Below, piece after piece: positions 2,876-16,298 of a DNA stretch of 19,640 nt (position 1 is the first letter of the stretch; each line of letters starts with the position of its first letter). The notes beneath the pieces are model-generated. The model did not search any database and had not been told where the DNA came from. It saw only the letters and a list, made by a program, of their open reading frames with translations. Origin of the DNA: Candidatus Theseobacter exili (GTDB lineage Bacteria; Auribacterota; JACPWU01; Theseobacterales; Theseobacteraceae); assembly GCA_030765365.1 (NCBI GenBank), contig JAVCCS010000026.1, positions 1 to 19,640 of the forward strand, in the 5' to 3' direction. The translations under genes were made by a program, and so were the position numbers.

Positions 2876-3145
2876 ATGCATGAACATGAAGGAGAAGCAA
2901 AAATAAATTGTCCAACATTTCAGAAACAAGAACCAATAATGAAGGGACTTACAAATAAAATTAATACAAATAAAGAGATACAGGAGAAAGCAAAATTTGC
3001 TGAAGAGCTCCAAAAAGAAGTAGCGGTTCTGCTTTCTTGCCCGGATCATAAGAGCGAAAATTTAGACTGTAAGAATTGCCATTTCATTGCAATGTTACGC
3101 AAGAAGGCCGCGGATTTAATAATAAAGGCCAAAAAACTGGTATAA
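2876..3145 (+). CDS. Small Cys/His-rich hypothetical protein, last gene of the gvp operon
   Basis: Strong SD GAGGGAGGG precedes the ATG. It has 4 Cys (CPTF, CPDH, CKNC) and several His, and is followed by a hairpin. No family recognised. Confidence 0.5.
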   Translation: MHEHEGEAKINCPTFQKQEPIMKGLTNKINTNKEIQEKAKFAEELQKEVAVLLSCPDHKSENLDCKNCHFIAMLRKKAADLIIKAKKLV

Positions 3146-3186: not shown

Positions 3187-3447
3187 CCCCTTGTGGGCGA
3201 AGCTGGCTCAATAAAAAACGAACCAAACTGGAAAGCCCAATCTAGTTCGTTAAATATTTTTGGCTCCCGTATTGGACGACTTTCGCAACTGGTTGGTGAC
3301 TGAGTCGGATGCTTTTCTGTTGTTGAAAGAGAAGTTGTAAAAAAATACTACATAGCTATCTGCTTGGCATTAGATGTCTTTTTAGATAATAATACCCACC
3401 AAAATAAGTATTGAATTGTTGTTTTGGATGCCCAATAATATACATTC

Positions 3448-3816
3448 ATGAGTAAGATGGGGAAAATAGAAAAAGAAAATAAATTAAGGTTGTTTATGAA
3501 ACAGAATTCTTCTAAAAAATGGGATGAGTGTGAAAACCCGGAACCAGAGGATACTCCAGAAAGCCAAAAAACGGAAGGTTTTGTTCCTTTTTATGACGCT
3601 CTACGCCAAGTAGGAGTGAATGAAATTAAAATTGTTACAAAATTACCTTGGTATAAAGTTCTTTTATATAAAATAACTGGAAGAGAAATTCCTCTCCCGA
3701 TTGAAGAGGGCTGGGTTGATCAAATGGAGAAGCAGGAAAAAGAGTTCATAGAAGAACAGAAAAAACCAAAAGAACCTATCCCTGGTTGGAATAAGATAGA
3801 TCATATTGATGGATAA
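3448..3816 (+). CDS. Hypothetical acidic protein (start ambiguous: ATG 3448, 3457 or 3496)
   Basis: ORF of 122 aa. There is no SD before 3448, but a -35 TTGAAT/-10 AATAAT pair ends about 8 nt upstream, so it may be leaderless. Alternative ATG 3496 has AAGG upstream. No family recognised. Confidence 0.45.
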   Translation: MSKMGKIEKENKLRLFMKQNSSKKWDECENPEPEDTPESQKTEGFVPFYDALRQVGVNEIKIVTKLPWYKVLLYKITGREIPLPIEEGWVDQMEKQEKEFIEEQKKPKEPIPGWNKIDHIDG

Positions 3817-3957
3817 AAGACTTTTGAAGTTATCATTGTTCAAAATTTGATTTATGAATTTTCTTAGAAAAAATTAATGTGGTTCATTGTTGCATAAAAT
3901 GAGTTGAATAATAAATTAGTAGTTTATTAAGTTCCTTTGACTCGAGGAGTGCTTACT

Positions 3958-4329
3958 ATGAAATTGTTTATTTATCTTGAAAAGACAATTGCTGTAGCAT
4001 TTGGTATCGTACTATTTTTGATAACACTAAGAGGTTCTAATGATTTATTTGGTATTTCAAAATTTGCAGATAAAATCTATTTTACTGATGAGTTGAATTT
4101 TAAAAGAAATATTCTTGCACCTACATACAAGTGTGGCGAAATAGATGTTGACGATGCAAAAGAAATTCTTGCAGATTATCAACAAGAGCATTGGTTTAGA
4201 CACAGTATTGCTGTAGTTATCATTCTTTTAAACGGAATTTGCTCTCTTGCCCTTTCAATATTTACAATAATGCAGCTTTATGAGAAATATAGACTGTTGA
4301 GATTTAGAGAACGATTATTTGTCGAATGA
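3958..4329 (+). CDS. Small membrane protein with two predicted TM helices (alternative start 3937)
   Basis: Hydrophobic segments TIAVAFGIVLFLITL and HSIAVVIILLNGICSLALSIFTIM flank a soluble region of about 70 aa. GGAG lies upstream of ATG 3958. Confidence 0.5.
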   Translation: MKLFIYLEKTIAVAFGIVLFLITLRGSNDLFGISKFADKIYFTDELNFKRNILAPTYKCGEIDVDDAKEILADYQQEHWFRHSIAVVIILLNGICSLALSIFTIMQLYEKYRLLRFRERLFVE

Positions 4330-4400
4330 TTTCTTCTTAAGCCGTTAAAAGGAATCAAAAATTCAAGCAATAATAACCTGGTAGTTAATGGAATTTGATT

Positions 4401-5120
4401 ATGGAGGGGTTAACAAAAAGGAAATTTTGGCTAATAAATGTTTATTTCGATAAGCCATATTCTTTTAAGAAATCACATTACATTAGTACTATTGCGCTTG
4501 ATATGCTTAAGTTGCATTGTAGCGATGCTAAACAAATGGTTTCTTCTTTGATCTCGAAAAATATCCTTAGTCAGTCGCCTGATGGAAATAAAGTAAAGTT
4601 TACCGAATACGGTGTGGAATCTTATTTATCAATGAAAAATGCTCAAAAAGAATGGGAAAACCAGCCTATTATAAGGACTGCCACTATTGATCAAAAACAA
4701 ATAATTATTAATGCGGATGAAAAGTACAAAGCTGATCGTATACTTCGGGACATAGTTCAGGAGGCAAGGACAGAACTTTGCATTATTGATGCCTACTTAG
4801 GGTGTAATATTTTTGACTTGATAGTAGACTTGACTCCTTGTATTAAAGCACGTTTGATTTCTTCCAACAAAACATCAAAAACAGTTTTTACTACATATAA
4901 GGCAATTCGAGAGAAGAATCCGGGCATTGAGCTTCGGATTACGGACGAGGGGAAGATTCATGATCGGTACATATTATTGGATGGAAATAAAGCTTATCAT
5001 TTCGGTCATTCATTCAAGGATCTTGGTAGTAAGGATACACAGATTAATAGTGTTAATGATATTATATTACAGTATGATAATTTTGAGAAAAGGTGGGCAA
5101 AATCTACAAAAGTTGAATAA
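4401..5120 (+). CDS. Winged-helix N-terminal domain fused to a divergent PLD-like (H-x-R-x4-D) domain; possible nuclease (ORF also open from TTG 4395)
   Basis: The N-terminus is wHTH-like (ALDMLKLHCSDAKQMVSSLISKNIL...DGNKVKFTEYG). The C-terminus has ELCIIDAYLG...IFDLIVDL...ARLISS then KIHDRYILLDGNKAYHFGHS, resembling the PLD HxKx4Dx6GS motif with K replaced by R. A PD-(D/E)xK fold cannot be excluded. Confidence 0.5.
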   Translation: MEGLTKRKFWLINVYFDKPYSFKKSHYISTIALDMLKLHCSDAKQMVSSLISKNILSQSPDGNKVKFTEYGVESYLSMKNAQKEWENQPIIRTATIDQKQIIINADEKYKADRILRDIVQEARTELCIIDAYLGCNIFDLIVDLTPCIKARLISSNKTSKTVFTTYKAIREKNPGIELRITDEGKIHDRYILLDGNKAYHFGHSFKDLGSKDTQINSVNDIILQYDNFEKRWAKSTKVE

Positions 5121-5154
5121 TAACTGTCCTGTTTAACACTAATAGATTAGTAAT

Positions 5155-6102
5155 ATGAATATAATATCCATGAGTTACAAAGAGTTAAGACTTAGAGATG
5201 CAGTTTTAACCGCAATAAATAAAATACCAAATAGATATTTGGGATATACTTTTTGGGATTTTTCCAAAATGACAACTGTTCCAGATGAGTTAGTAAATTA
5301 TCATCCTCAAAGTATTCGACATATATTTCATGAACTTGAAAAAGATGGAATAATTGTTGCTTATAACTCTGAGCAAAATACACAAAAGAGACAGCATGTA
5401 TTAACATTTGAGGTGAAGGATTGTTTTGAAAATATATATTTTGCTTGGTGTCGTCAAAAAGAGATTTGTTTTGATGATTTGAGTTTTATGAAAAGGGAGG
5501 TCATTCATGATTTCCTTAAAGAAATATATTGTGAATTTGAGCTTTCATCAAATACAAAAATGAAATTTAAAGCTCCAGAAGATATCAATATTTTATTTTA
5601 CCTATTGCATAATCACGTTTTTGAATCATTTGTACATAACTATGACTACATACCTGAACCGTGTGTAGATATTGAGATAAATGCAAAAATCTTTCTAAAT
5701 TTTCTTCTTGAAATAGAGAAACAAAATAGTAATACAGATACAAGCAATAAGATTCAGTTTCCAATACAATGCAGTTGGGAGGATATTGCTATTAATTTTT
5801 TAGATGGCCATTATGTAAAGATTTCAGCTGCTGATTATAAAGATAGATTTAATTTTGTAGAAATGGGTTTTGAAAACAAGAATACTCGTCTACCTAACAA
5901 GCAATGGTTGTTATTAGAGTTATTAGCCAATAGTAACGGTTGTATTGATTGGGAAGATACTGAAGCCAACTCAAAACTCAAAAAGCAAAAGCAGTTACTT
6001 TCAAAGAAACTGCAGTTGTTTTTTAATATTCATTCAGATCCTTTTTATCCTTATCATAAAGAAAAATCTTACCGCATTAAAATCAAACTTATACCGTATT
6101 GA
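5155..6102 (+). CDS. Hypothetical 315-aa protein with two winged-helix-like segments (RepA-like architecture?)
   Basis: N-terminal SIRHIFHELEKDGIIVAYNSEQNTQKRQHVLTFE and C-terminal QWLLLELLANSNGCIDWED...KLKKQKQLLSKKLQ both look wHTH-like. Starts 34 nt after the previous gene. No confident family. Confidence 0.45.
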   Translation: MNIISMSYKELRLRDAVLTAINKIPNRYLGYTFWDFSKMTTVPDELVNYHPQSIRHIFHELEKDGIIVAYNSEQNTQKRQHVLTFEVKDCFENIYFAWCRQKEICFDDLSFMKREVIHDFLKEIYCEFELSSNTKMKFKAPEDINILFYLLHNHVFESFVHNYDYIPEPCVDIEINAKIFLNFLLEIEKQNSNTDTSNKIQFPIQCSWEDIAINFLDGHYVKISAADYKDRFNFVEMGFENKNTRLPNKQWLLLELLANSNGCIDWEDTEANSKLKKQKQLLSKKLQLFFNIHSDPFYPYHKEKSYRIKIKLIPY

Positions 6103-6246: not shown

Positions 6247-6414
6247 ATGGCGAAGTTTTCAGACAAATATCTCAAACAAACTATTGAAGTATGGAAACCA
6301 TACTATCCAGAGGTTCTTACTTTCGAAGATGCTCGTGAAATAGCTGAAAACACCATTGGTCTGTATAAACTCATTATGGAATTGGAAGGACATGAAGATC
6401 AGGCGAAAGTTTAA
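6247..6414 (+). CDS. Small hypothetical protein (55 aa)
   Basis: ATG 6247 has AAAGGAC upstream. Overlaps the next gene by 23 nt in another frame. The longer ORF from 6175 is unlikely because it spans the A9/T8 tracts. Confidence 0.35.
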   Translation: MAKFSDKYLKQTIEVWKPYYPEVLTFEDAREIAENTIGLYKLIMELEGHEDQAKV

Positions 6415-6814
6415 TGTTGGACTAATTAAGAAAACATTGTGTTACTCCACAAATGAAATAGCTGAATTGTTTTCTATACATAAAAGAACTGTTCAAACGT
6501 TGTACAAAGAAGGTCTTATGAAAATTGATGATAGAAAACCTTTTTTGGTAAAAGGGGCTGATTTGGTGGCCTTTATTAAAACTCGCCAGAAACAACATAA
6601 GAAGAAATGCGAGCAAACTGAAATGTATTGCTGTAAATGTCATTTGCCCAGGAAACCATTATCTGGAACTGTTGAATTAATTTTTATCAATAAAAGACAG
6701 ATTCAGTTACAAGCTTTTTGTTCGATATGTAAGACAAAAATCTTTAAGTTTATTAAGCCTGCGAAGTTAGAAGAGTATAAAAAAATATTTATGGTGAATA
6801 AGAGGCAATATTAA
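6392..6814 (+). CDS. Putative DNA-binding protein: HTH plus Cys-rich zinc-ribbon-like region
   Basis: GGAAGGA SD before ATG 6392. HTH-like STNEIAELFSIHKRTVQTLYKEGL. CCKCH...CSICK cysteine pairs. Confidence 0.45.
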   Translation: MKIRRKFNVGLIKKTLCYSTNEIAELFSIHKRTVQTLYKEGLMKIDDRKPFLVKGADLVAFIKTRQKQHKKKCEQTEMYCCKCHLPRKPLSGTVELIFINKRQIQLQAFCSICKTKIFKFIKPAKLEEYKKIFMVNKRQY

Positions 6815-6874: not shown

Positions 6875-7963
6875 ATGATTAAATACAACGCAAAAAATGA
6901 AAGAATAAAAAGAGAATATTTTGAATATCAAAGAGAAGCACGGCAGAAAAGTATTGCTACAGTAGACAATATAAGAAAGGCAATAGACCGGTATGAGAAA
7001 TATACTGATTATAAAGATTTTAAGACATTTAACAAGCGTCAGGCCGTTGGATTTAAAAAAAGCTTTTCTCAAACAAAAGGTGTTGCTTCGAAAGATTATT
7101 TGAGTAAATCAACCTTGTTATCAACAGTAAGAAACTTAAAAGATTTTTTTGGATGGGTGGCATATCAGCCCGGATATAAGAATATCGATATTAGGGATAT
7201 TGAATATTTGAATCTTTCTGAGAAGGATACCAGGATTGCTAAATCAAAAAAACAGCCTAAGGTTCCTACAATAGATCAAATAAGAAAAGTACTCAACTGC
7301 ATGCCTTATAAAACAGATATTGAAAAGCGGAATAGGGCTCTTATAGCATTTACTATTCTAACTGGAGTAAGGGATGGTGCTATTGCTTCATTAAAAATCA
7401 AGCATATTGATGTTGAGGAGAAGATTGTTAAGCAAATGCCGGATCAGGTTAAAACTAAGTTTAGTAAAACTATTTATACTTATTTCTTCCCTGTGGGGGG
7501 TGATATTGAACAAATAGTTGTAGATTGGATATTGTATTTAAAAAAAGAATTGTTTTTTGATGAAGAGGCACCACTTTTTCCCAGGACAAGACTAACTGTA
7601 TCAAGTGAAAACTGTTTTACGGCTTCAGGTTTAGAGCCTGTTCATTGGCAATCGGCCAATCAGATCAGAAAAATATTTAAAGTAGAATTTATAAATGCAG
7701 GGCTTTCTTACTATAGCCCGCATTGCTTTAGAAATACCATAACACGCTTAGGGGAGAGACTTTGCAAATCGGCTGAGGATTTTAAAGCCTGGAGTCAGAA
7801 TTTAGGGCATGAGTCTCCTTCAACTACTTTTACCAGTTATGGATATATAGAAACACACACTCAAGGTAAAATTATTAAGGAAATTGGAACAAGTGAAAAG
7901 AAAAGTACAGATGAAAAACTCGAAGAAATATTGGCTCGCCTTCCAAAACAGGAATTACTTTAA
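6875..7963 (+). CDS. Tyrosine site-specific recombinase / phage-type integrase
   Basis: GAGGTG SD. Catalytic-domain motifs RNRALIAFTILTGVRDGAIASL, HCFRNT (H-x-x-R) and LGHES...TSYGYI (catalytic Tyr). Confidence 0.85.
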   Translation: MIKYNAKNERIKREYFEYQREARQKSIATVDNIRKAIDRYEKYTDYKDFKTFNKRQAVGFKKSFSQTKGVASKDYLSKSTLLSTVRNLKDFFGWVAYQPGYKNIDIRDIEYLNLSEKDTRIAKSKKQPKVPTIDQIRKVLNCMPYKTDIEKRNRALIAFTILTGVRDGAIASLKIKHIDVEEKIVKQMPDQVKTKFSKTIYTYFFPVGGDIEQIVVDWILYLKKELFFDEEAPLFPRTRLTVSSENCFTASGLEPVHWQSANQIRKIFKVEFINAGLSYYSPHCFRNTITRLGERLCKSAEDFKAWSQNLGHESPSTTFTSYGYIETHTQGKIIKEIGTSEKKSTDEKLEEILARLPKQELL

Positions 7964-7985: not shown

Positions 7986-8005
7986 ATGTTATATTATGTT
8001 ATATT
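7986..8005 (+). repeat. Tandem 10-bp direct repeat ATGTTATATT x2 abutting the XRE start codon
   Basis: 7986-7995 and 7996-8005 are identical. The third unit starts with the ATG of the XRE ORF at 8006. Confidence 0.5.
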
Positions 8006-8191
8006 ATGAATATATTGGAAAGACTTGAACTATATCGTTTGGAAAATCGAGTTTCACAGAAAAAACTTGCGGGAATGCTTGGTGTGTCTTTTGCAACAGT
8101 TAATCGTTGGTTTAACGGCAGAACAAAACCTAATAAAATTCAGACATTTCATATTGAGAAACTTCTAAAGGAGCATGCCTTTGATGAATAA
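8006..8191 (+). CDS. XRE-family helix-turn-helix protein (possible Xis/RDF or element repressor)
   Basis: SQKKLAGMLGVSFATVNRWFNG is a classic HTH_XRE. It overlaps the recombinase start by 8 nt. Confidence 0.7.
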   Translation: MNILERLELYRLENRVSQKKLAGMLGVSFATVNRWFNGRTKPNKIQTFHIEKLLKEHAFDE

Positions 8192-9644
8192 GGCCATACT
8201 TTATACGCGTGTATCGAGTAAAGCACAAGAGCAGGACGGTTATTCTCTGGATGCGCAGGAGAAACTTGGCTATGAGTATGCGTTAAAAAAGGGTTTTGCT
8301 ATTTGCAAATCCTGGAAGGTTTCTGAATCTGCATGGAAACAGGACAGGGAAGCTTTTTCAGAAATGCTTGAATATGCGAAGCGTAATGAAAAAGTAAAAC
8401 ATATTATTTTTGATGTTACTGACCGTATGACGCGTAATGATTATGATAAGATAAGAATTTATACTTTGATTAGGGAGTATAATAAAACAATACATTTTTC
8501 GCGCAATAATAAAATCATAGATAAAGCCTCCGGTTCTGATGATGAATTTATGCTTGATATTGAGGTTGCAGTTGCTAAAAAGATGTCTAATGATATTTCA
8601 AAGAAAACAAGCATGGGGTTACTTGAAAAGGCTGAACAGGGTTTTTATCCTTCATTTGCGCCTATTGGATATATTAATAACAAGGTTACAAAGTTAATAG
8701 ATTTAGATCACGAAACTGCACATCTAATTAGGCAATGCTTTGAACTTTATGCGACCGGTAACTATTCTTTAGAGTCTTTACGGCACGAGATGCGGCATAG
8801 AGGCTTAGAAAGTTCTTCCAAGAGTAAGATTGCACATGTTTTGCATAATCCCTTTTATTATGGAGGTTTTATCTGGTTGGGAAAACTTTACATGGGGTCA
8901 CATAAACCAATTATATCCAAAGAGCTTTTTGATAAGGTACAACAGCTGTTAACAGGCAAACCATTAATACATAAACAGAAACATCTTTTTCACTTCAACA
9001 ATTTAATTACTTGCGGTGAATGTGGGTGCAAGGTAATTGGTGAACGTAAAACAAAGACAAGCGGTAAAGTATATGATTATTATCATTGTACTTTTTCAAA
9101 AGGAAGACATGGTTCAAATAAGTATTACAAGAACAGTTATATCGAAAAGCAATTTGAAAATATTGTTGAATCCGTGACTCTACCTGAAGATATGGCTGAT
9201 TGGATTGCCCAGGGAATAAAAGAAATAAGCAAGGACAGGTTCAGGGTGCAGGAAGTCAAAATAAAGCGTTTAAAAGGCGAATTAGCCCTTCTTAATGCAA
9301 GGTTAAGCAAGTTATATGATATGAAGTTAGACGGTGAAATTGAAGATGGTATGTTTAAATCAAAAGAAGCTGAGTTTAAAAGTACTATTGCTGAACTTAC
9401 TATAGCGGTTTCTTATGCTGAAAAAGAAAATCGTGATTACTTTGAAACTGGAAGGCAAACCCTCGAACTCTCTAAACGCTTACATAAACAGTATGTTAGG
9501 GCAGATGGTATTAATAAGGCAATAATCTTACGTTTTATAGCTTCGAACTACACTCTAAATGACGCAAGTCTTTCTCCTGCAATGAGAAAGCCCTTCAGCA
9601 TCTTTGCTAAAGGGCTATCCCGTACAATTTGGCTCCTCGGGTAA
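8184..9644 (+). CDS. Large serine recombinase (resolvase N-domain + recombinase domain + zinc ribbon)
   Basis: AILYTRVSSKAQEQDGYSLDAQ catalytic-Ser motif. CGECGC...YYHC zinc ribbon. C-terminal coiled-coil. The last 5 codons and the stop lie inside tRNA-Asn. Confidence 0.85.
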   Translation: MNKAILYTRVSSKAQEQDGYSLDAQEKLGYEYALKKGFAICKSWKVSESAWKQDREAFSEMLEYAKRNEKVKHIIFDVTDRMTRNDYDKIRIYTLIREYNKTIHFSRNNKIIDKASGSDDEFMLDIEVAVAKKMSNDISKKTSMGLLEKAEQGFYPSFAPIGYINNKVTKLIDLDHETAHLIRQCFELYATGNYSLESLRHEMRHRGLESSSKSKIAHVLHNPFYYGGFIWLGKLYMGSHKPIISKELFDKVQQLLTGKPLIHKQKHLFHFNNLITCGECGCKVIGERKTKTSGKVYDYYHCTFSKGRHGSNKYYKNSYIEKQFENIVESVTLPEDMADWIAQGIKEISKDRFRVQEVKIKRLKGELALLNARLSKLYDMKLDGEIEDGMFKSKEAEFKSTIAELTIAVSYAEKENRDYFETGRQTLELSKRLHKQYVRADGINKAIILRFIASNYTLNDASLSPAMRKPFSIFAKGLSRTIWLLG

Positions 9645-9704
9645 GACTCGAACTTACAACCTAGTGGTTAACAGCCACCCGCTCTACCATTGAGCTACCG
9701 AGGA
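9630..9704 (-). tRNA. tRNA-Asn (anticodon GUU)
   Basis: The reverse complement folds as a canonical cloverleaf: acceptor UCCUCGG/CCGAGGA, anticodon loop CUGUUAA, T-loop UUCGAGU, G73, encoded CCA. Confidence 0.85.
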
Positions 9705-11625: not shown

Positions 11626-11702
<77 letters not shown>

Positions 11703-11707
11703 ATTTA

Positions 11708-11784
11708 GGCGGATTAGCTCAGTTGGTTAGAGCAGGGGAATCATAATCCTCGTGTCCGGGGTTCGAATCCCTGATCCGCTACCA
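11708..11784 (+). tRNA. CAU-anticodon tRNA (elongator Met, or tRNA-Ile2 lysidine substrate)
   Basis: GGCGGAUUAGCUCAGUUGGUUAGAGC...AUCAUAA...GGUUCGAAUCC...AUCCGCUACCA. Anticodon CAU. Identity as Met versus Ile2 cannot be decided by eye. Confidence 0.8.
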
Positions 11785-11905: not shown

Positions 11906-12382
11906 ATGAAAATGATGAAAGGTTTTTTGGTTGTGTTAGCTGTCATGCTATTTTGTTCAGTTTCATTAGCTGAACCGCACGGGAAGAGTGACAAAGAAGA
12001 TTTTAGATCTAAGGTTATTGGTAAAGCGCATTTGATGTTGATTAATCAGGAAGAACTTGGACTTTCTGAAGAACAAATCAAGCAGATTAAGGATATTAAA
12101 ATTAATTTGAAAAAAGACATGATTCAACAGGGAGCTCAGATTGAGATTTTAGCAGTTGATATTATGGCAGCACTTTGGGCCGATAAGGTTGATAAAGAAG
12201 CAGTTGATAAGCTGATTGATAATAAATATGATCTGAAAAAAGCTAGGGCCAAAGAGCTTGTAACTGCGTATGTTAAGCTAAATGAGGTTTTAAATGAAGA
12301 TCAGGCGAAAGAAATGAAAAGTCTTTGTATGAAAATGAAACAGCATAAACAAGGATGGTCCGGTAGAAAAAGCGGGAAATAG
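11906..12382 (+). CDS. Secreted periplasmic protein, CpxP/Spy/ZraP-like (LTxxQ-type) family, tentative
   Basis: Signal peptide MKMMKGFLVVLAVMLFCSVSLA-EP. Helical charged repeats with LSEEQIKQIKD. Start ambiguous (GTG 11903, ATG 11906 or 11912). Confidence 0.5.
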   Translation: MKMMKGFLVVLAVMLFCSVSLAEPHGKSDKEDFRSKVIGKAHLMLINQEELGLSEEQIKQIKDIKINLKKDMIQQGAQIEILAVDIMAALWADKVDKEAVDKLIDNKYDLKKARAKELVTAYVKLNEVLNEDQAKEMKSLCMKMKQHKQGWSGRKSGK

Positions 12383-15482: not shown

Positions 15483-16298
15483 ATGTTCAGATTTACCATG
15501 TATTTGGTGTTTTTCATCGCTCTTGTGTTTTCTGGTTTCTTTGCTTTGGTGGATTTTGGTCCTCAGGAGATGGTGCCTATTATTATGTACAACCATATTG
15601 GTGAAGAAGTAGATACAGAAAATATCAATTACACTCACTCACGGCGTTTTCAGAAGCATATGAAATTTTTACGCGATTCCGGATTCAATGTTATTTCACT
15701 TGAAGATGTTGCCAATATTTACAAGAGGAAAGAAAAGGTACCTCGTAAAACAGTTGCTATTACTTTTGAACATGGATATAAGGATTTCTACGATATTGCT
15801 TTTCCTATCCTTAGAAAACATCATTTTCCTGCCACAGTTTTTGTGAGTTCTTCCTATGTCGACAGAGGAGGTTATATTAATCGAGAGCAGCTTCAGAGGA
15901 TTGCAGATTCGAATACTGTAAAAATAGGAAGCATGGGTATTCACGACAATAGTCTTCAAGGACTTCAGCCGCAGGAACAAACTATGGAAATATTTAATTC
16001 GAAAGCAAATTTGCAGAAAATGGCTGGAATTGATGTGAATTTTTTCTCATTTCCGGAAGGGTATTCTACTAAACAGCTTCGCTATAAGGTTAAGGAATCG
16101 GGTTACAAGGGTGCAGTAATTCTTCAAGCAGGGAAAAGAATTTCTTATAGAAACCGTTATGCTATGAGAAGAAATTGGGTTTATACAAAGGATAATTATT
16201 GGTCTTTCAGGTTGAAACTTTGGGGGAACTTTCCATTTATTGAACCCTTGTGGGAGAAAACCAGAAAATTTCTCAATAAATTATGGAGAAAACGTTGA
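15483..16298 (+). CDS. Polysaccharide deacetylase (NodB homology domain) with N-terminal TM anchor
   Basis: VAITFEHGYKDFYDIAFPILRKHHFPATVFV NodB motif. N-terminal hydrophobic helix. Confidence 0.8.
   Translation: MFRFTMYLVFFIALVFSGFFALVDFGPQEMVPIIMYNHIGEEVDTENINYTHSRRFQKHMKFLRDSGFNVISLEDVANIYKRKEKVPRKTVAITFEHGYKDFYDIAFPILRKHHFPATVFVSSSYVDRGGYINREQLQRIADSNTVKIGSMGIHDNSLQGLQPQEQTMEIFNSKANLQKMAGIDVNFFSFPEGYSTKQLRYKVKESGYKGAVILQAGKRISYRNRYAMRRNWVYTKDNYWSFRLKLWGNFPFIEPLWEKTRKFLNKLWRKR

Follow-up and report, generated by a model that had tools for sequence, protein, structure and literature searches.

The PDC systems are untested defence candidates, defined by their embedding within BREX, DISARM or type I restriction-modification (RM) loci (bioRxiv 10.1101/2024.01.29.577857). 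For one of these families, PDC-S05, a representative with a RhuM domain from a cold-seep metagenome-assembled genome (MAG) lowered the plating of phages T7 and T5 about 1000-fold in E. coli (10.1101/2024.09.26.614923). Here, we analysed a window that spans an entire 19,640-bp contig from a MAG of 'Candidatus Theseobacter exili' (Auribacterota, PVC group), in which four consecutive genes, here named A to D, include one (C) that falls within PDC-S05. At a probability of roughly 60%, we read this block as the cargo end of a ~6.4-kb integrative element together with the first gene of the element's backbone, D, with A, B and C as independent passengers of which C alone can be assigned. Nothing in the block is a new system; it belongs to an ordinary integrative element with independent cargo.

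A preliminary description had taken the block for phage-defence cargo on a small integrative element, and the four genes for a candidate defence or abortive-infection module of unrecognised families. The four co-directional + strand open reading frames (ORFs) lie where it placed them, at 3448-3816 (122 aa), 3937-4329, 4395-5120 and 5155-6102 (315 aa), and its gaps hold, with 120-141 nt between A and B, 65-71 nt between B and C, and 34 nt between C and D. In a codon-usage model trained on the remaining genes of the contig, all four ORFs score positively in the annotated frame and negatively in both shifted frames, while the minus-strand ORFs beneath them are short and have poor codon scores. 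The context it gave, a gvp operon on one side and an integrase module on the other with a tRNA adjoining, is borne out by family scans, ARAGORN and Rfam. Its protein labels are mostly sound, B having two hydrophobic segments, C a winged helix-turn-helix (wHTH) and a phospholipase D (PLD)-like domain, and D winged helices, but A is only mildly acidic. The proposal of defence cargo stands as far as C, a member of a candidate family, is concerned, but not for a four-gene abortive-infection module.

The same description had named two outcomes that would speak against a module, absence of conserved gene neighbourhood across genomes and homology to replication, partition or conjugation functions. 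When A-D were searched by tblastn against 120 fetched loci, comprising for relatives of C nine context loci and 80 metagenome loci (often short contigs), for the D family 18 distinct loci and for B homologues eight, none besides the source locus contained two of the four genes. The first outcome was thereby obtained outright, and the second was found in spirit, since D belongs to the backbone of the element and stands directly upstream of replication genes in some relatives. D had been counted as cargo, but it shows both synteny with the serine recombinase and linkage to it. The statement that none of the four proteins could be placed in a known system gives way to the recognition of C by the PADLOC models of PDC-S05 (E-value 9e-23). 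The four genes are not a conserved module, and the reading as a four-gene abortive-infection system is unsupported. The main value of the analysis is a false lead averted: tight co-directional spacing on a mobile element mimicked a four-gene abortive-infection system.

Gene D and the element backbone

D is part of the element backbone and not cargo, because it is syntenic in an element that lacks A-C, is linked to a serine recombinase, and heads operons running into replication-type genes. The synteny is with an Omnitrophota MAG contig (JAUSCU010000077; loci L016 and L107), where counterparts of D and of the two genes that follow it here (E and F, Table 1) are succeeded by a tyrosine recombinase, an HTH_3 protein, a serine recombinase and tRNA-Asn. 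A, B and C are absent from that element, and its cargo, an EcoRI-type methylase with GmrSD/HNH, sits in another slot. Linkage to a large serine recombinase, within a few kb of D and usually downstream on the same strand, was found in 14 of the 18 distinct loci (L010, L012, L013, L015, L016, L017, L019, L020, L021, L022, L024, L025, L109 and L120). Where D heads an operon in relatives, the following genes encode DUF5659 and DUF3854 proteins, a ParB-methylase and then GpA_ATPase/DEAD, or a DUF5659 protein and then a 453-aa protein; in a Fischerbacteria MAG whose serine recombinase is 72% identical to the one studied here, D is followed by an E homologue, an HTH_36 protein and DnaB. No literature on DUF3854 with serine recombinase elements was found.

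The D family comprises 33 homologues, most of those aligned sharing only the last ~110 aa, with variable N-termini. Besides the Auribacterota, its loci (L010-L026, L109 and L120) come from Patescibacteria, Saccharibacteria, Omnitrophota, Fischerbacteria, Armatimonadota, Magnetococcales and Gammaproteobacteria MAGs. The C-terminal domain, encoded by 5761-6102, has the consensus W..I.I.F.DGH.V.I...Y.EMGFED.R..LPNKQW.LL..LA..NGE.SW...KKQKQLLS..LK.YF.I..DPFYPY...K.YRIKI.L.PE, and residues W208, F215, G238-F239, P247, Q250-W251, K279, P296-F297 and Y306 are invariant. The NCBI annotation (P9M03_01055) begins at Met6 of the ORF used here. D and ten of its homologues gave no match in Pfam, NCBIfam or PHROG, D itself had no significant match among PDB sequences and none in phage and plasmid collections, and in IMG/VR it matched a single contig.

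Two assignments of D were considered and rejected. An iteron-type Rep, with a Rep_3-like double winged helix, gave no Rep match, and the intergenic regions contain no tandem or dispersed repeats. An OmpR/PhoB winged helix (Trans_reg_C) in the C-terminal domain, to which the pattern of its sequence had pointed, reached an hhalign probability of 0.06 against a PhoB sequence and found no Pfam match, a rejection that applies to the sequence level.

In our reading, D binds DNA, has winged helices that vary at the N-terminus ahead of the conserved ~110-aa C-terminal domain, and heads the maintenance operon of the element; its position, linkage and fold suggest that it is probably a regulator of the element, or an origin or recombination accessory factor. 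A more far-reaching proposal, which we put forward as a quite unlikely one, would make the D family a dedicated partner of large serine recombinases, with a directionality, regulatory or origin-binding role, and a marker of undescribed tRNA-targeting mini-elements that shuttle defence genes among uncultivated phyla. If this were so, the orphan A and the membrane protein B would count among candidate new defence genes. The family is in any case a reliable marker of small serine-recombinase elements in poorly studied phyla, and could be of use for tracing the limits of these elements, and the defence genes they carry, in metagenomic data.

Gene C and the PDC-S05 family

Alignments of homologues place the start of C at ATG 4401, giving 239 aa; the NCBI annotation (P9M03_01050) is a 205-aa protein that begins 34 residues late and loses helix 1 of the winged-helix domain. 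The PADLOC match cited above is to model PDLC04869 and pairs protein residues 46-223 with profile positions 125-292 of 306; a second PDC-S05 model, PDLC04879, matches at an E-value of 1.7e-18, the assignment resting in both cases on the profile E-value and not on PADLOC's own coverage rules. Nine close homologues are 42-53% identical to C, and its C-terminal domain has hundreds of more distant relatives. By tblastn this domain also ends some proteins annotated as RhuM-family or ORF6N, and it is found fused to NYN domains. When compared by hhalign with a RhuM-family protein of B. thetaiotaomicron, it aligns to the C-terminus at a probability of 98.7 and an E-value of 2e-16, with HDR...G.S.KDLG.K kept. 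C has no match to Pfam Virulence_RhuM. These matches suggest that C is a single-gene defence candidate, an added member of the known candidate family defined by PDC-S05 and the RhuM C-terminal domain.

Close homologues of C occur in four unrelated contexts (L001; L002-4; L005; L007-9), and relatives in the 80 metagenome loci, without a homologue of A, B or D, and in every context examined C is a stand-alone gene. Among the neighbours of some relatives are toxin-antitoxin pairs, HEPN_AbiU2, bAvd, a type II restriction endonuclease, and an AAA ATPase with a retron-type HNH endonuclease.

An AlphaFold2 model of C (mean predicted local distance difference test score 84.5) runs from a winged helix through a long helix into a PLD fold. 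Foldseek returned the archaeal regulator TrmBL2 (5bpi) as the best match, over the full length (E-value 3e-11), and the nuclease Nuc (1byr) at an E-value of 1.7e-7 and a TM-score of 0.72, together with NucT, Zucchini, PLD3, FAM83 and MITD1; the PLD fold is thus present in the predicted structure. The family-invariant motif is H187-D-R189-x4-D194-x7-G202-H-S204-x-K206-D-L-G. C does not have the catalytic HxK(x)4D...GSxN motif, Arg replacing Lys, and has no PLDc match in Pfam at E ≤ 1. Searches of PDB sequences with C, D and three profiles (A1, A2 and A3) gave only weak matches, to PadR and MITD1, each with an E-value of 0.2. C would dimerise through the long helix and bind DNA by its wHTH, and the pocket of the PLD fold, with HxR...D...GHSxKD, would bind or cleave a phosphodiester substrate or bind a phosphate ligand, the expected outcome being that invading DNA is blocked. 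What C offers is a wHTH-fused variant of the PDC-S05/RhuM-C-terminal PLD-fold family whose invariant HxR pocket is amenable to mutagenesis.

The best full-length fold match, to TrmBL2 and TrmB with the same three-part architecture, and the HxR in place of the catalytic HxK would also fit a transcription factor of TrmB type, belonging to the element or to the host, with a non-catalytic PLD-like domain for ligand sensing and no role as a defence effector; the homologues of C that lie amid metabolic or transport genes point the same way. We consider this unlikely. No Pfam TrmB or Regulator_TrmB model matches C at E ≤ 1, PDC-S05 models do, and the fusion partners of the C-terminal domain include NYN nuclease, ORF6N and RhuM-N domains and not solely the HTH domains of regulators. 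The scattered, stand-alone distribution near toxin-antitoxin, abortive-infection and RM genes is, moreover, typical of defence genes. In view of the HxR motif and the MITD1 match, a sensing or binding role of C, like the TrmB-like one, is still a serious competitor.

Boundaries, other cargo and remaining genes of the element

With its ends at about 3259 and 9636, the element appears to be some 6.4 kb long. Its insertion point is the tRNA-Asn 3' end, and it is flanked by a gas-vesicle operon and tilS. To its left are gvp genes encoding two GvpL/F proteins, GvpG, a GvpA/J-type Gas_vesicle protein and GvpK, and to its right are tRNA-Asn, on the minus strand, and then tilS. The block is followed by a recombinase module of tyrosine recombinase, HTH_3 protein and large serine recombinase, the last of which, with its Resolvase, Recombinase and zinc-ribbon recombinase domains, stands at the end of the element adjoining the target, as expected of a large-serine-recombinase integrative element. 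Integration at the tRNA 3' end would most likely proceed via this enzyme. The 9-mer TTTGGCTCC is present in exactly two copies in the window, one at 3259 and the other covering the CCA end of the tRNA-Asn gene, and at least two matches arose in 6 of 200 shuffles. As the similarity does not extend into the flanking arms, we grade this evidence as moderate only. Directly left of the copy at 3259 is a hairpin, which is probably the terminator closing the gvp operon and the final host sequence before the element. The GC content of the A-C segment is 0.323, comparable to that of the recombinase module and D (28.9-34%), while host windows of equal length are all higher (0.35-0.385). A-C are placed inside the element because of the pair of 9-mers, the low GC content, and a C-D gap that contains no tRNA-end-like sequence.

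A degenerate tRNA 3' half at 3259-3290, considered as a tRNA remnant at the left end, was rejected; Rfam and ARAGORN found nothing there and the arms are dissimilar. Attachment repeats sought in the Omnitrophota relative gave chance-level matches only. In that relative (L016), a 17-nt string GAAGGGCTTGGCTCCC(C) at 11984-12000, inside the tyrosine recombinase gene, was compared with the junction region at 16251-16280: it reproduces both 9-mers flanking the junction between recombinase end and tRNA (GAAGGGCTT...TTGGCTCCC), minus the 12 nt between them, and may be fortuitous or represent a secondary site.

Synteny with the Omnitrophota element is conserved from D onwards, and the attachment evidence at 3259 is the 9-mer only, both of which would be accommodated if A-C were host chromosomal genes and the element started only at D. 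This is improbable, as only 34 nt, with nothing resembling a tRNA end, separate C from D, the GC content of A-C is element-like and below that of every host window, and the 9-mer abuts the gvp terminator as the original tRNA flank would. B and C, in addition, behave as mobile genes of patchy distribution. In the preferred reading, the stretch from the left end to D would be a variable slot, and A, B and C three passengers that entered it separately. Four annotated relatives have AbiJ_NTD4, GmrSD/HNH, HEPN_AbiV with AAA_15, or a Schlafen-like helicase in the slot upstream of D, on the opposite strand; because of these defence-like genes in the same slot, a defence or anti-defence role of A and B is a reasonable guess by analogy.

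B is a conserved small membrane protein that travels alone and has no conserved partner. From ATG 3958, the start also called by NCBI, it has 123 aa, with hydrophobic segments at about residues 1-28 and 79-108; an alternative start is the upstream TTG at 3937, and the homologues, which are N-terminally longer and align across 3958, fit either. They number nine, at 57-66% identity and with a mean column identity of 68%, and their three contexts are unrelated and lack A, C and D; IMG/VR contains no match. In other contigs, homologues of B adjoin a PDDEXK_4/PDC-S26 gene (L114, 2507-3715), a REase-ARP nuclease gene (L110, 2161-3153) and a DUF4145 gene (L116, 3621-4463), and such neighbours suggest that B may itself be an inhabitant of defence islands. 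These nuclease-type neighbours, the 65-71 nt separating B from C, and the MITD1-type PLD fold that is the closest sequence-level PDB relative of C, and by which C might bind membrane as MITD1 does, would together allow B and C to form a lineage-specific two-gene system. We regard this as very improbable, since in the loci examined no C-like gene neighbours B homologues and no B-like gene neighbours C homologues, and the neighbours of B come from unrelated families and lie on either side of it.

Gene A is an orphan specific to its lineage and has no conserved partner. Its codon score is +0.27 in frame against -0.28 and -0.38 in the shifted frames, and its isoelectric point is 5.4, with 24 D/E and 21 K/R residues. 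A search of 1.84 billion representative proteins returned only A itself, besides one borderline match (E-value 7e-4) to a 1771-aa protein. As with B and D, nothing significant was found for A in Pfam, NCBIfam, PHROGs or PADLOC.

That A-D form one defence or abortive-infection system of membrane effector, nuclease and DNA-binding partners is scarcely credible: the genes are co-directional and closely spaced behind a single promoter-like site with no predicted internal terminator, on a mobile element and with C as a defence candidate, but no pair of them recurs in any other locus examined, A is an orphan, and D is syntenic backbone in elements without A-C.

Several points weigh against our own reading of independent cargo next to a backbone gene. 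The four genes may be co-transcribed here, because no + strand terminator is predicted between them. The left boundary has been set from GC content, a 9-nt repeat and logic, and a comparison of the sequences around the two copies of TTTGGCTCC revealed no further similarity. The function of D is read solely from synteny and generic wHTH folds, with no family, PDB or Pfam match behind it. Other relatives of C have metabolic, transport or unrelated neighbours that are not defence-like. The best sequence-level PDB match of C is the PLD fold of MITD1, a non-enzymatic, membrane-binding domain with the motif IHDR, at the non-significant E-value given above; nuclease activity of C is doubtful because it has HxR and not HxK, MITD1 is nearest by sequence, and the regulator TrmBL2 is the best fold match. 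Finally, the PDC-S05 protein assayed in E. coli is a different, RhuM-domain protein, which may not have the C-terminal domain of C.

Table 1. Positions of the genes and sites of the element and its flanks in the 19,640-bp window
Feature	Position	Strand	Evidence
Probable host terminator hairpin	3217..3251	.	T-runs on either side; 16-bp stem; terminator-like site and inverted repeat
Candidate left attachment core TTTGGCTCC	3259..3267	+	9-mer repeat
Promoter-like site upstream of A (TTGGCA, 18 nt, AATAAT)	3364..3393	+	10/12 consensus match; consensus match only
A, 122-aa orphan, cargo	3448..3816	+	ORF; in-frame codon bias; no family match in four libraries
B, 123-aa protein with two predicted transmembrane segments, independent cargo	3958..4329	+	Hydrophobic segments; nine homologues; three other contexts
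C, wHTH, coiled-coil and PLD-fold protein, HxR variant of HKD	4401..5120	+	PADLOC; homologues; AlphaFold2; Foldseek; hhalign
D, 315-aa multi-winged-helix protein, backbone	5155..6102	+	C-terminal domain ~residues 203-315; linkage; synteny; wHTH folds only
E, 55-aa protein	6247..6414	+	Directly 3' of D homologue in two related elements, tblastn
F, HTH_17/excisionase-like, Cys-rich C-terminus	6356..6814	+	Pfam HTH_17 E-value 9e-6, below gathering score
Tyrosine recombinase	6875..7963	+	Pfam Phage_integrase E-value 1e-11; phrog_1
Small HTH_3 (Cro/CI-type) regulator	8006..8191	+	Pfam HTH_3 E-value 9e-9
Large serine recombinase	8175..9644	+	Resolvase, Recombinase and Zn_ribbon_recom domains; phrog_95 E-value 1e-67
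Candidate right attachment core TTTGGCTCC	9628..9636	+	Covers CCA, discriminator base and 3 nt of acceptor stem of tRNA-Asn
tRNA-Asn (GTT), integration target	9630..9704	-	ARAGORN; Rfam tRNA 71.5 bits

Downstream of D, the small gene E is 55% identical to its counterpart in the Omnitrophota element (L016, 10657-10833) and 51% to that in a second related element (L020, 3211-3432), and D and E look like a conserved pair. F, whose true start is probably ATG 6392, has a weak match to the excisionase model TIGR01764 and is 34% identical to the syntenic gene of L016. The HTH_3 regulator shares 50-53% identity with genes that precede the recombinase in L016 (50%) and L010. Just upstream of its gene, at 7986-8008, a perfect tandem 10-mer, ATGTTATATT (2.3 copies), overlaps promoter-like hexamers and may be an operator.

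The tyrosine recombinase is 36% identical over its full length to the syntenic gene of L016, and the large serine recombinase is 52% identical to that of L016 and 72% to that of L020. Both kinds of recombinase are contained in an element of 6.4 kb, and the pair is kept in L016 (11313-12407 and 14781-16313, at the 36% and 52% just given); candidate roles of the tyrosine recombinase are multimer resolution or a second integration system. The serine recombinase ORF runs across the presumed attachment core into the tRNA 3' end (9627-9644 in the window), with an overlap of 15 nt here, and the same geometry is found in relatives, with 42 nt at the Omnitrophota tRNA-Asn (L016, 16272-16313) and 12 nt at a tRNA-His (L010, 13592-13603). 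Should the 9-mer be the crossover region, the recombinase encoded on the excised circle would have a different C-terminal tail, 8 aa longer, with ...IWLPYWTTFATGW replacing ...IWLLG, a change that could possibly act as an integration-state switch.

Two observations concern the host flanks. At the end of the gvp operon, an 89-aa ORF (2876-3145) has CxxC/CxxCH-like cysteines and a very weak match to magnetochrome (MCR; E-value 0.11), with no match to a gvp family. On the other side, 3' of tilS, two tRNA-Met (CAT) genes stand in tandem 5 nt apart (11626-11702 and 11708-11784), and because tilS is paired with CAT-anticodon tRNAs, this arrangement suggests that one of them may be a tRNA-Ile2 precursor.

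Comparison with known systems

C resembles PDC-S05, including proteins annotated as RhuM-family or ORF6N, in matching its models, sharing the C-terminal domain, and being a stand-alone gene often found near defence genes, but differs from the RhuM, ORF6N and NYN proteins in its N-terminal module, which is a wHTH followed by a long helix. With the archaeal regulators TrmB and TrmBL2 it has in common a predicted wHTH, a coiled coil and a PLD-like C-terminal domain; unlike them, it has an invariant HKD-like pocket and the distribution of a mobile accessory gene, and identity in the top TrmBL2 fold matches is 12-16%. The PLD fold and the spacing H-x-[KR]-x4-D-x7-G-x-S are shared with the PLD nucleases that have a single HKD motif (Nuc, NucT and Zucchini/PLD6), and this spacing corresponds to a single HKD unit, which would need a dimer. 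C departs from these nucleases in having Arg for the catalytic Lys and GHSxK for GSxN, and no PLDc_2 sequence match.

The element as a whole resembles the small integrative elements and prophage-like islands that large serine recombinases mobilise (phiC31/Bxb1-type integrases, SCCmec Ccr, XisF) in having such a recombinase at the element end by the target, and in its variable defence cargo, as seen in related elements. It is set apart from them by its target at the 3' end of a tRNA gene, by a recombinase ORF that runs across the junction, by the additional tyrosine recombinase, and by the unannotated D-family gene that it carries.

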